A stretch of DNA of 64,000 nt, from NCBI GenBank assembly GCA_964610295.1, contig CAZSVR010000012.1, positions 4,246-68,245 of the forward strand. The letters run 5' to 3'. Positions 53,051 through 57,340 of the stretch are shown here, one piece after another (positions within the stretch are counted from its first letter, which is position 1; each line of letters begins with the position of its first letter). The position numbers were made by a program, and so were the translations under genes. The notes below the pieces were generated by a model. That model saw nothing but the letters and a program-made list of their open reading frames with translations. It was not told the origin of the DNA and did not search any database. This stretch comes from an uncultured Anaerolineaceae bacterium (lineage in GTDB: Bacteria; Chloroflexota; Anaerolineae; Anaerolineales; Villigracilaceae).

Positions 53051-53857
53051 ATGGATCTCAAAATTCAACTTACAGGTTTGAACGAATTGCTATCCATTAT
53101 CTATGGGGACAAGCTGCAGTTGAGCACCTTGCTGCGCGAAATCGGATTTGAGGGTTCCCAGATCGAACACTTGCAAGAGCAGCATCTCGAGTCCATTGTC
53201 CCCCAGTTTTTGGAGGTCATCCACAAGCGCCTGACGAGCGATTCAGGTAAGGATACCTATTATCAGATCCTGAGCCGTCGTTATGGATTGGACGGCCAAC
53301 CACCCGAGCAACTTCCTGCGATCGCCGCCAAGGAAAATCACAGCCCGGAATATCTGCGTCAGTTATTCGAAGAGATCATTCAAAGATGCCAGAGCAAAAC
53401 ATGGCAGGCCGAACTCCGCAAGAGCCTGAAATATATTGCCGTTTCTCAACTGGAGAAAATGAATGAGCGCCCGACACGTGAGCACATTGCTGAAAAACTG
53501 GAACGCCTGACCAATTTACGCGGCGCGGCGGACGTGGCCCGCCTGGATTACGAAGCCAAACGCGCGGAGATCCTTAAGCAGATCCAGGCCGAGCTGGATG
53601 CGCTCGATTCCGAATACACGCCCATACTTGAAGCAGCCGACGAAAATATTGCCGCGCTGGAAAATGAGATCAAGACCGAGGTGCTTTTGCACGGTGAAAG
53701 TGTTTCAGGTGGGGTCTATCGCGCCACGTACACGCAGGGACGCGTCTCATGGGATAACGATGGCATGGCCAAGTATGCAGCTTCCCACCCAGACGTGGCC
53801 CAATTCCGCAAACAGGGACAACCCATCGTCTCTTTGCGCACGGTGAAACAAGATTGA
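53051..53857 (+). CDS. Hypothetical protein: sigma70 region-4-like HTH, coiled coil, phage Gam/Gp157-like C-terminus
   Basis: ILSRRYGLDG...YLRQL; GRVSWD...HPDVAQFRK; domain calls are pattern-based. Confidence 0.5.
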   Translation: MDLKIQLTGLNELLSIIYGDKLQLSTLLREIGFEGSQIEHLQEQHLESIVPQFLEVIHKRLTSDSGKDTYYQILSRRYGLDGQPPEQLPAIAAKENHSPEYLRQLFEEIIQRCQSKTWQAELRKSLKYIAVSQLEKMNERPTREHIAEKLERLTNLRGAADVARLDYEAKRAEILKQIQAELDALDSEYTPILEAADENIAALENEIKTEVLLHGESVSGGVYRATYTQGRVSWDNDGMAKYAASHPDVAQFRKQGQPIVSLRTVKQD

Positions 53858-54957
53858 ATTTGCCTCCCGATTTCATCCAAACCATCCAAAGCACGTCTGG
53901 AGAAGATGGAAAACAATTGATCGAAGATCTTCCCAATCTGATCGCAGAGGCATCAATCAGGTGGGGATTATCGAATATTGAACCGATCCCAAACCTATCC
54001 TTCAACTTTGTGGCGTTTGCAAAACAGGTCTCGATACGGCGGCGTTGGTCGAGTAGGACGAAGTCCGTATACTTGCGCCGCACTGCGTTTGTTGCAGTGC
54101 AGGTGTCGAGACCCGCCGCCTACTCGACCAACCAGCAGGACGTAGTACTGAAAATTGGGGTGCCACGCGATGAATCGATCAGCGAAATGGCCGCGTTGCG
54201 TCTCTTCAATGGCGATGGCGCGTGCCGTTTACTAGAATATGATGAGTCGCGCGGTTTTTTATTGCTGGAACGACTTCGGCCTGGGACGATGCTCTCGGAA
54301 TTGGAAGATGATGACGAACGCACTCACATCGCTGCGCAGGTGATGAGCAAGCTTTGGCGAGAAATTCCTGTAGACTCCGCTCAAGGCGGCGTCCCCGCCG
54401 CCGTCCCACAGGGATGCTTCGCGAAGGACGGCGGCTTGAGCATTGTTTCCAAATTTATTAAATTATCAGATTGGTTTGATGGGTTGAAGAGGATTCGTCC
54501 ACATTTCAATGGAGGAACCGGACCCTTCCCAAAAGAACTTTTGGAACAAGTGGACGCTTTTTTGCCAGAGTTGTTCGCGGATGAAAACGTAAATCTCATA
54601 CATGGGGATTTTCATCACTTCAATGTGTTGCTGTCAGACCGCGGCTGGCTGGCGATCGATCCCAAAGGCGTGATCGGCCCAGTGGGTTATGAGGTGGGTC
54701 CGTTCATGCTCAACCCGTGGAGCGGCATCTCGGACGCGCACCAGTTCAAGGCTTGTCCTGAGCGAAGTCGAAGGGTCCAGGCAGAGAGGCGGGTGAGTAT
54801 CCTTTCAGAGAGACTCGGCTGGGAGCGCGAAAAGATCATTCAGTGGGCAACCGCCCATGCCGTCTTATCTGCATGGTGGAGCATAGAAGATGGCGGGGAA
54901 GAAACGGGTTGGGAGTATTCGATGTGGTGTGCACAGATGTTTTCAGAGATTAAATAA
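53854..54957 (+). CDS. Aminoglycoside/hydroxyurea resistance kinase (APH(6)-like) with three repeat-derived in-frame insertions
   Basis: VVLKIG, LLLERL, HGDFHHFN, IDPKG. Confidence 0.85.
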   Translation: MNLPPDFIQTIQSTSGEDGKQLIEDLPNLIAEASIRWGLSNIEPIPNLSFNFVAFAKQVSIRRRWSSRTKSVYLRRTAFVAVQVSRPAAYSTNQQDVVLKIGVPRDESISEMAALRLFNGDGACRLLEYDESRGFLLLERLRPGTMLSELEDDDERTHIAAQVMSKLWREIPVDSAQGGVPAAVPQGCFAKDGGLSIVSKFIKLSDWFDGLKRIRPHFNGGTGPFPKELLEQVDAFLPELFADENVNLIHGDFHHFNVLLSDRGWLAIDPKGVIGPVGYEVGPFMLNPWSGISDAHQFKACPERSRRVQAERRVSILSERLGWEREKIIQWATAHAVLSAWWSIEDGGEETGWEYSMWCAQMFSEIK

Positions 54958-55418: not shown

Positions 55419-55531
55419 GCTGACAATTTTAGGACAGATTAAGGAGGAAACCTTTCGCATGAAGCGGAAGGTTCTTTATGTTGAGGTCGTCTATCAACTG
55501 CTTTCTTTATCCCAAATGGTACAATCTTATG

Positions 55532-57340
55532 ATGTCATTGATCAGCCTGCCTGCAGAATTTACATTGGAACGCAAGCATATTTACAACCGCACATCTGCA
55601 GTCCGCTGGATCTGGTCGCATGCGCGTGTTTACTGGTGGATCATCCTGATGATCTTCGCGGGCGCGATCGGCAACGCAGTACTGGCGGTGGTCGTGCCTG
55701 TGTTGACCGGCGACGCGTTCAATGCCATGTTGAAAACACCGCCGGATACTTCGGTGTTGTGGCCGCTGGCTTTCACGATTGGTATCTCACAAGTCATTCG
55801 AGGCGTGCTTCAACTGGGCCGCAACTTCGGCGCGGAACTCATGGCGCAAAAGATGGAGCGCGACATTCGCGATGAGTTGTATCTATCCCTGCTCGGCAAG
55901 AGTATGACCTTCCACAACCTTCAACCGGTGGGGGATACGATGGCGCGCACCACCAACGATGTACGTGAAGTGAACTATATGTTCAGCCCGGGCGTGAACC
56001 TGGTGGTTGGCTCGTTCATGTTCATCATGATGCCATTGATCTTCGCGCCGCGTTATCACATCTCGCTGATCATTACACCGGTCATATTCACGATCATCTA
56101 TTTCTTGGCCCTGGCGCGTTATCTCAAAACGCTGGCGCCCATTACAGATGAAGTGCGTGCTACATTCGGAAAGATGAACACGCATCTGTCAGAATCGCTT
56201 GACGGTGTGGAGATCATGAAAGGCGCGGCACAGGAAGGCGCGGAAGTGGAACGGTTCGTCACTAACGCGCGGCATGTGCGCAATGCCTTCGTGCAACAAG
56301 GTGACCTTGAAGCGCGCTATATCGCGAACCTGCTGCTCGGCCTGGCTTACGCGAGCGGACTGGTCCACGCCTTATTGCTCTTTCGCGCAGGCCTGATCGA
56401 CATCGGCGCGGTGATCGCGTACTTCGGTATTTTGCGTTTGCTTGAATTCCCCACTTTCACATCCACCTGGGCTTATTCGCAAATTTCACTTGGACTGTCC
56501 TCCGCGCGCCGCATCCTGGAACTGATCAATCGCGAAACGAAACTCGACCAAAACGCCTCCGGTCGGACCTCGGCCATGCGCGGCGAAATTGAATTTCGCG
56601 GCGTTTCATTCCACTATCCCTCTCCCGATGGGGCACCTAAAGGTGTGCTTCGCGAAGGGCAGGGTGAGGGAGAATCTGTTTTGCAGGATATTTCCTTCAA
56701 AGTCAAACCCGGTCAGACCGTTGCCATCGTCGGGCAAACCGGCGCGGGGAAGACCTCGCTGGTCAAATTGATCAACCGCACCTACGATTTAAAATCGGGG
56801 CAGGTCTTTATCGATGGTGTCGACGTGCGCGAATGGAACCTGGCCGCATTGCGTTCGCAAATATCCATTATTGAACAGGATATCTTTTTGTTCTCGCGTT
56901 CCTTAAGTGACAACATCGCCTTCGGAAAGCCCGGCGCAACCAAAGACGAGATCATGGCTGCCTCCATCGCGGCACAGGCACATGACTTCATCCTCGATTT
57001 TGATCGAACTTATGCGACCACCGTTGGCGAACGCGGTGTCATGCTTTCCGGCGGACAACGCCAGCGCATTGCGCTGGCGCGTGCATTCCTGACTGACCCG
57101 CGCATTCTCGTGCTGGACGACTCCACCTCTGCAATCGACTCGGCCACAGAAGATAAGATCCAACGCGCCATCTCCAACGCCGCGCGTGGACGTACCACCT
57201 TCATCATCACACATCGTCTCTCCCAGATCCGCTGGGCAGATGTCATCATCGTGCTCCGCAAGGGCAGGATCGTCGCGATCGGCTCGCACGCTGAGTTGAT
57301 GAAAACATCCGTAGCCTATTCAAGAATTTTCCGAGAATAA
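55532..57340 (+). CDS. ABC exporter (TMD+NBD) subunit 1 with a 16-aa repeat-derived insertion
   Basis: GQTGAGKT, LSGGQRQR, LVLDD; TACAAT 6 nt before the ATG. Confidence 0.92.
   Translation: MSLISLPAEFTLERKHIYNRTSAVRWIWSHARVYWWIILMIFAGAIGNAVLAVVVPVLTGDAFNAMLKTPPDTSVLWPLAFTIGISQVIRGVLQLGRNFGAELMAQKMERDIRDELYLSLLGKSMTFHNLQPVGDTMARTTNDVREVNYMFSPGVNLVVGSFMFIMMPLIFAPRYHISLIITPVIFTIIYFLALARYLKTLAPITDEVRATFGKMNTHLSESLDGVEIMKGAAQEGAEVERFVTNARHVRNAFVQQGDLEARYIANLLLGLAYASGLVHALLLFRAGLIDIGAVIAYFGILRLLEFPTFTSTWAYSQISLGLSSARRILELINRETKLDQNASGRTSAMRGEIEFRGVSFHYPSPDGAPKGVLREGQGEGESVLQDISFKVKPGQTVAIVGQTGAGKTSLVKLINRTYDLKSGQVFIDGVDVREWNLAALRSQISIIEQDIFLFSRSLSDNIAFGKPGATKDEIMAASIAAQAHDFILDFDRTYATTVGERGVMLSGGQRQRIALARAFLTDPRILVLDDSTSAIDSATEDKIQRAISNAARGRTTFIITHRLSQIRWADVIIVLRKGRIVAIGSHAELMKTSVAYSRIFRE

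Follow-up and report, generated by a model that had tools for sequence, protein, structure and literature searches.

Host Gene and Its Insertions

The window is a stretch of 64,000 nt on contig C12 of a draft assembly (3.73 Mb, 51.7% GC, 163 contigs, 96%-complete) from an Anaerolineales bacterium. It carries a phosphotransferase gene that is interrupted in frame by repeat-derived sequences, and the main features of this gene are as follows.

53854-54957, + strand, host gene: intact 367-aa APH(6)/streptomycin-6-kinase-like phosphotransferase (Pfam PF04655, orthologue alignment)
54028-54129, + strand, net in-frame insertion of 102 nt = 34 codons, aa 59-92, VSIRRR...PAAYST (filled vs empty site DNA)
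54384-54442, + strand, second, unrelated repeat-derived in-frame insert, about aa 177-197 (repeat match C7:6394-6452)

The open reading frame (ORF) of the host gene matches the aminoglycoside/hydroxyurea kinase family PF04655 with E = 5e-35 (121.5 bits; cut-off 27) and is collinear with its orthologues from end to end in the alignment. Every column invariant among 52 homologues is kept, including H250-G-D-F-H-H-x-N257 and D269, and the Pfam match and the intact catalytic-loop motifs HGDFHHxN and IDPKG together place the product in the APH(6)/hydroxyurea kinase family. A Foldseek search with the predicted model found a fold like those of choline kinase, methylthioribose kinase, and APH(4). The interrupted kinase is presumably made and active.

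The kinase was found in 18 of 40 related genomes by a six-frame search, and nearly all matches consist of residues 1-58 and 94-367, skipping residues 59-93. In 14 orthologues of the same genus, a turn of only four residues separates AK[RQ] from V[VI]LK; this kinase has 38 residues there. The palindromic span of 107 nt (54027-54133) is not divisible by three, and the in-frame gain relative to orthologues is 102 nt. The first-pass annotation of this DNA had described the frame as open with a gain of about 35 residues; the open frame stands, but the gain is 34 residues (aa 59-92). The frame in use contains no stop codon, and stops occur in two of the five other frames. The same annotation had named, as evidence against its reading, retention of the peptide by orthologues that lack the palindromes. 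Those orthologues lack the peptide and all invariant residues of the kinase are kept, so that its own test does not refute its reading.

Since PDB sequence searches with the kinase gave no useful template, the position of the loop is based on the AlphaFold model (mean pLDDT 75.6) and on Foldseek. In the model, the insert is bounded by beta-strands 52-58 and 95-101, and pLDDT is below 50 for residues 64-91. It is thus placed in a beta-hairpin turn that immediately precedes the strand with the conserved ATP-binding lysine (VVLK), and its 34 added residues are predicted to form a disordered loop between the two strands. Structure prediction had been proposed in the first-pass annotation for locating the loop, and this is the placement that it gives.

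The second insert (54384-54442) has 95% identity over 59 nt to C7:6394-6452, has further partial copies, and is itself layered. It is missing or different in orthologues, and residues 177-192 have pLDDT below 50. A further repeat-derived in-frame insert of the kinase (ACPERSRR) lies at about 54751-54775, for which no additional genome matches were found at the threshold used.

Structure of the Nested Composite

The insertion at 54027-54133 is composed of the following parts, the arms of the outer unit being defined from solo copies.

54027-54043, + strand, outer unit, left arm: GGTCTCGATAC and stem GGCGGC
54044-54069, - strand, inner unit of the same family, inverted; + strand 5' part: GGTCGAGTAG, hairpin GGAC-GAA-GTCC, and GTA
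54070-54105, + strand, 36-nt hairpin element of the CACYTGC..GCARGTG family, the last layer (family consensus, clean empty sites)
54106-54113, - strand, inner unit, remaining arm: TCGAGACC
54114-54133, + strand, outer unit, right arm: stem GCCGCC and CTACTCGACC, with extension AACC

All parts of this span are confirmed as repeats and are not chance palindromes. The breakdown into 17+27+36+7+20 nt in the first-pass annotation holds, and its layers are separate repeat elements, each having copies where the controls have none. The innermost hairpin has the length of 36 nt claimed for it, but the family consensus and empty sites place it at 54070-54105, one base to the left of 54071-54106. It had been assigned to the loop of the inner unit and is found in the 3' arm of that unit, between GTA and TCGAGACC. 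In place of three families only two are involved; one of them comprises both the outer and the inner unit. The 36-nt element in the kinase reads TACTTGC..GCAGGTG, with T in place of the consensus C at its first base. Once the 36-mer is taken out, the inner unit, read as its reverse complement, matches solo units in two other genomes (G008 and G022) at 31/31 positions.

As RNA, the segment 54020-54140 has a folding energy of -53.2 kcal/mol (z = -3.8), which was not reached by any of 200 shuffled sequences. In its most stable structure, 54044-57 is paired with 54119-32, and the layered pairing is not seen. A single element with 14-bp perfect inverted repeat ends at these two positions was also considered and was rejected, as no such family exists and the arms are family consensus. 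No Rfam family matched the window or the site.

REP-Like Family

Genome repeats were scanned by blastn-short and paired-motif scans. Since a single 10-mer arm with one mismatch occurs at background frequency, arms were scored as pairs only. The family of the outer and inner units, here called REP-like, has the arms GGTYTCGATAC and CTACTCRACC, which enclose a self-complementary, variable hairpin 5-25 nt in length. Its units are 27-45 nt long, and in all strict copies CTAC abuts the 3' side of the variable stem-loop (GTAG on the 5' side on the other strand). This genome has 30 strict matches, and the control read backwards has none. The family is present in 54 of the 61 genomes of the genus, at 0-151 copies per genome (control, 0). 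According to a crude ORF map, 15, 8, and 9 of 32 loci in this genome are intergenic, at gene edges, and inside ORFs, respectively, and many inverted pairs 30-50 bp apart are seen among the copies listed. A short stem-loop with an unpaired GTAG/CTAC, together with many dispersed, mostly intergenic copies that often have inverted neighbours, places the REP-like units in the GTAG-tagged REP superfamily.

A composite form, the double, is 67 nt long and consists of a GGCGGC-stem unit carrying an inverted unit in its loop. The junction diagnostic of doubles was found in 17 of the 61 genomes (control, 0). In 12 doubles inspected, the outer GGCGGC/GCCGCC stem is invariant and the inner hairpin is variable.

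CAC Family and Its Target Site

The 36-nt layer belongs to a second family, CAC, with the near-inverted ends CACYTGC and GCARGTG. Its 36-mer has 31 copies at two or fewer mismatches in this genome (backwards-read control, 0), and the 36-nt form occurs in 27 of the 61 genomes, often identical at 36/36 positions. Pairs of CAC ends within 170 nt number 116, against 14 in the reversed-genome control, and the preferred sizes are 21, 36, 57-63, 65, 80, 108, and 123 nt. This series indicates that a larger member is a smaller one that contains additional hairpins.

In REP-like host units the CAC site is GTA^TCGARACC (TCGA^TAY on the other strand). The junction of GGTYTCGA with CACYTGC is present in seven units here and in 15 other genomes (control, 0). 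At 12 inspected loci from 10 other species, length-variant CACs lie at the same phosphodiester bond in host units that have different hairpins. In the flanks of 106 CAC loci, CGA is found on one side in 62 and GA in 72. When the flanks were joined (9+9 nt, at most one mismatch), 58 of the 106 were found uninterrupted elsewhere, mostly as multi-copy sequences, that is, other repeat families. The target-site duplication by which MITEs are recognized was not seen, as these 58 joined flanks restore an intact sequence and the kinase copy is clean. The solo REP-like unit of locus L031, which lies between CAG and GGC, is also without duplication.

CAC nesting into the REP-like arm is targeted. The earlier proposal that the elements target each other's hairpins is supported for CAC, which enters a fixed site in other repeats, but targeting was seen in one direction only, and the CAC site lies in an arm and not in a loop. 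Two cases are observed: CAC elements enter other repeats, and a REP-like unit enters the loop of a like unit that has a GGCGGC stem. On the crude ORF map, most solitary CAC elements fall between genes, and what looks like an intragenic copy is usually a chance pairing of ends or a short spurious ORF; the CAC element of the kinase is therefore best explained as following its host repeat into the gene.

More elaborate nests are present in the same genome. One of four layers (C3:68728-68859) is a double whose inner unit has a CAC element holding a 29-nt hairpin, and another (C3:62577-62733) is a double with a 57-nt CAC variant and a further insert in the right arm. Across the 61 genomes, the REP-like arms and the 36-nt CAC element are identical to the base in many species in which the kinase orthologues are 60-70% identical, and copy numbers range from 0 to about 150 between species.

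The Same Elements in Other Genes

REP-like units were found in frame inside other genes, in both orientations and encoding unrelated peptides.

C13:59570-59636, REP-like unit in the N-terminal region of a PLD-like protein, in frame
C34:11264-11303; C79:102-138 and 1926-1958; C119:794-834, REP-like units in methionyl-tRNA synthetase, GT4 glycosyltransferase, polysaccharide flippase, and methylmalonyl-CoA mutase

The copy in the PLD-like protein is a double and encodes nearly the same 22-residue peptide as in the kinase. In methylmalonyl-CoA mutase the unit lies in the N-terminal region. Since unrelated genes thus read one family in different frames and orientations, what is conserved is the DNA and not the peptide.

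The ABC-transporter gene neighbouring the kinase (ORF 55478-57340) contains an in-frame 55-nt composite of another palindromic family at 56618-56672 (+ strand), with arms CCCTCTCCC ... GGGTGAGGG and peptide PSPDGAPKGVLREGQGEG. In the kinase encoded on another Anaerolineales contig (L064), the loop is filled by the same 55-nt composite.

Kinase Loop across Anaerolineales

Among the best 120 kinase homologues, 70 have the empty turn of four residues and 50 have in-frame inserts of 6-34 residues there; the list comes from a word-seeded search and may slightly favour sequences that share the query insert. The inserts belong to at least four element families, listed here by their peptides.

VSI..YST, the REP-like family: 9 homologues
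PST..RGSAQ: 19 homologues
PSP..GQGEG: 16 homologues
VTLSEAKG: 5 homologues

About 10 of the 50 inserts are compound, and these occur across families. On a maximum-likelihood tree of the kinase built without the insert columns, the insert families are scattered; the REP-like type needs eight changes, at least four of which are forced by well-supported branches. Several sister pairs have different families in the same loop (e.g., P0007/P0010, P0060/P0070, and P0022/P0003), which suggests rapid turnover or replacement of inserts at the loop. Solo 36-nt REP-like units, of two hairpin types, are found in kinases on three contigs of other Anaerolineales at the same boundary and in the same orientation and frame.

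Depending on the family, inserts begin 0, 3, or 6 nt into the 12-nt turn. A hotspot in the DNA, or an exchange of cassettes, was considered for this site. The start points of the four families differ by a few bases, and this difference favours a permissive loop filtered by selection over a single DNA target, although the REP-like inserts share one boundary in the four sequences compared.

Order of Events and Alternative Explanations

When positions 54070-54105 are removed, the composite is identical at 66 of 67 positions to an intact 67-nt double in another genome (G008:C5, L033), and about two positions differ from a double in G020 (L039). The closest relative of the kinase double in this genome (C3:121789-121843) is without the 36-mer. 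The 36-nt layer came last, because its removal regenerates a double that is intact elsewhere. The first-pass annotation had proposed that one insertion seeds stepwise growth. This is supported for the last step; three stages are less likely than two, since the double is found pre-assembled in 17 of the 61 genomes. The orthologue alignment that it had suggested for ordering the layers confirms that the insert is missing in the 14 orthologues of the same genus, but it provides no intermediate allele. Neither a solo unit nor a double without the 36-mer was found for this lineage among the kinase homologues, of which the nearest has only 79% identity over shared columns; with none above this level, no intermediate alleles are available.

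In the steps that we propose, the double would enter the kinase at the codon boundary after Ala-Lys-Gln and add 66 nt (22 codons), and a 36-nt CAC element would then split the inner-unit arm between GTA and TCGAGACC, without target duplication, and add 12 codons. Insertion of the CAC family would occur directly 3' of a short motif, mostly CGA, and as this motif is itself part of other repeats, nesting would be automatic. Both steps would preserve the frame and bring no stop codon, and the product, a basic disordered loop of 34 residues, would be tolerated by selection. The double probably arrived in the kinase as one piece, and the insertion of the 36-mer most likely happened within the kinase gene; the presence of the double in 17/61 genomes makes two insertion events likelier than three. 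Taken as a whole, it is likely that these are selfish repeats, the double followed by the 36-mer, which are tolerated in a permissive loop and form no functional module.

The number of events may be smaller or larger than two. The kinase might have received a ready-made three-layer composite of 102 nt in one step, with no stepwise growth in the gene. In line with this, a triple of the same architecture exists at C34:22095-22198 (89% identity over 104 nt), as does the four-layer nest at C3:68728-68859, and composites spread as units elsewhere, with at least 12 copies of a 108-nt CAC composite and the double in 17 genomes. However, the C34 triple was not the donor, since its inner hairpin is entirely different (GCCTGAAAGGC vs GGACGAAGTCC). 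Moreover, no second copy of the exact kinase triple was found in the 96%-complete assembly, and the nearest relatives of the outer two layers are all without the 36-mer, so that we hold a single event to be rather doubtful. Three events in place, in which a solo unit is followed by an inverted unit in its loop and then by the 36-mer, would keep each intermediate in frame, because 36, 66, and 102 nt are all divisible by three. Solo 36-nt units do occur at exactly this boundary in the three other kinases, and solo units with a GGCGG stem are present here (C79:102 and C106:106). The solo-bearing kinases are, however, not the nearest relatives on the tree, and the double is a conserved 67-nt entity in at least 17 genomes with an invariant outer stem, for which spread as a unit is the simplest account; this course is unlikely.

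The hairpins could instead be functional, either because the mRNA folds into a structure by which kinase translation or stability is regulated, or because the encoded loop is a selected protein module. Such a role would agree with the strong RNA fold (-53 kcal/mol, z = -3.8), with the conservation of the REP-like arms and the 36-mer to the base across species, and with the position of the loop next to the ATP-binding strand. It agrees poorly with the lack of an Rfam match, with the occurrence of the same DNA in other frames and orientations in unrelated genes and mostly in intergenic regions, with the predicted disorder of the loop, and with the homologues, 70 of 120 of which have no insert at all while the rest have unrelated sequences. 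We consider a functional role very unlikely. An assembly artefact or a decaying pseudogene is still more improbable. The assembly is a draft of metagenome type in 163 contigs and a repeat region is hard for assemblers, but the insert is exactly in frame and free of stops, the gene is full-length with flanks collinear with orthologues, all invariant residues are kept, and similar in-frame inserts are found in many independent assemblies. The insertion of a double and then of a 36-mer, both selfish and tolerated, is thus the reading that we adopt below.

Candidate Mobilizing Enzymes

Insertion 3' of a short motif, the absence of a target duplication, and hairpin ends are hallmarks of Y1/HUH transposition. 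The CAC family inserts 3' of a fixed motif without duplication and has hairpin ends, as expected of an IS200/IS605-like element. Clean insertion by a short motif, hairpins, and exact conservation across species are together hallmarks of HUH/Y1 systems (IS200/IS605 and RAYT), and elements of 27-36 nt that are exact between species with 30-40% protein difference point to an active and specific mobilizing enzyme. By analogy with these systems, we infer that the elements would be moved by a hairpin-recognizing single-strand transposase of HUH/Y1 type. CAC elements resemble the miniatures of IS200/IS605 (HUH survey, bioRxiv 10.1101/279083) in short-motif 3' insertion, lack of duplication, a hairpin, and occurrence on both strands; they differ in that their basic forms are only 21-36 nt long and that no cognate transposase is linked to them.

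Nine Y1_Tnp genes are present in the genome: one bona fide IS200 transposase, three IS200-like genes, and four to five RAYT-like genes, the last being below the NCBIfam cut-off. The flanks of all nine (250-300 nt) contain other hairpins, and neither the REP-like nor the CAC family was found in them. Unlike in REPIN-RAYT systems, no RAYT gene here is flanked by these repeats. Two RAYT-like types were followed across the 61 genomes, and their presence does not track the element counts. The window itself contains a RAYT-like Y1 gene (585-1265, + strand) that has its own flanking hairpins and a duplicated gene start, unrelated in sequence to both families.

Comparison with Known Systems

In-frame palindromic insertions are a textbook oddity of Rickettsia. 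As summarized in PMC10969869, the Rickettsia palindromic elements (RPEs; Ogata et al., 2000, 2002) are palindromic repeats lying in frame in unrelated, apparently functional genes; they add peptide segments at fold-compatible positions and are read as selfish DNA. The kinase case, which we compare by behaviour only, is like RPEs in having in-frame palindromes in genes, and on sequence evidence it appears as a stop-free, in-frame insertion in an intact, conserved kinase gene. Unlike RPEs, which on that description are single elements of about 100-150 bp in an obligate intracellular alphaproteobacterium, the units here are 27-45 nt long with two families nested, the host belongs to a free-living Anaerolineales lineage, and the same loop has been hit repeatedly across many species.

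GTAG-tagged REPs (Di Nocera et al., 2013; PMC3733652) are stem-loops of 20-40 bp that end on one side in an unpaired GTAG/CTAC. Some GTAG/CGTC REPs are located inside ORFs, also as dimers or as clusters, the latter encoding up to 82 residues, and the REPs of some families are regularly found within other palindromes, an example among the Chloroflexi being Thermomicrobium roseum (PMC3733652). Since nested and intragenic REPs have thus been published, nesting and coding insertion are not new in kind, and the statement of the first-pass annotation that such nesting has no known precedent was too strong. GTAG-REPs and REPINs (PMC3733652; Bertels and Rainey, 2011, PMC3116915) share with the present units the GTAG/CTAC tag, the stem-loops, the frequent opposite pairs, and a copy number that varies among related species. 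The present units differ from them in having extra conserved outer arms and a hypervariable inner hairpin, and the composite differs from REP dimers in that a unit lies in the loop of another unit and not at its side. Mobile repeats of less than 30 nt lying within other repeats, and occasionally in conserved genes, were reportedly described in 2008 by Elhai and co-workers in heterocystous cyanobacteria. These small dispersed repeats are like ours in size and nesting, and belong to a different phylum and have different sequences.

What is new here is the taxon, the two families themselves, and the hierarchical way in which modules are added; the precision, to the base, with which one miniature family targets the arm of another throughout the genus; and the density of independent in-frame insertions on one enzyme loop. 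Tentatively, the families may be part of an undescribed, interlocking community of ultra-small hairpins in Anaerolineales, in which arm sites serve as landing pads, composites assemble themselves, and the process is an ongoing, major source of loops.

The locus presents a process of the Rickettsia type in free-living Chloroflexi at a much higher resolution, because each layer has its counterpart in intact copies and in empty sites. Which step came last is directly readable, and the 36-nt element has a base-precise target across many species. The kinase loop forms a natural series of empty, single, and compound states, with at least four families in 120 homologues, for the study of how proteins absorb random peptides. 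It is an unusually clear case of a known route by which bacterial proteins gain loops. If the tentative proposal is true, conserved enzymes would gain new surface loops in large part from the hairpin community; 42% of the kinase homologues carry such a loop, and compound forms would arise repeatedly. In its strongest form, a resident element would raise the chance of further insertion, and loop growth would be self-reinforcing and not merely tolerated.
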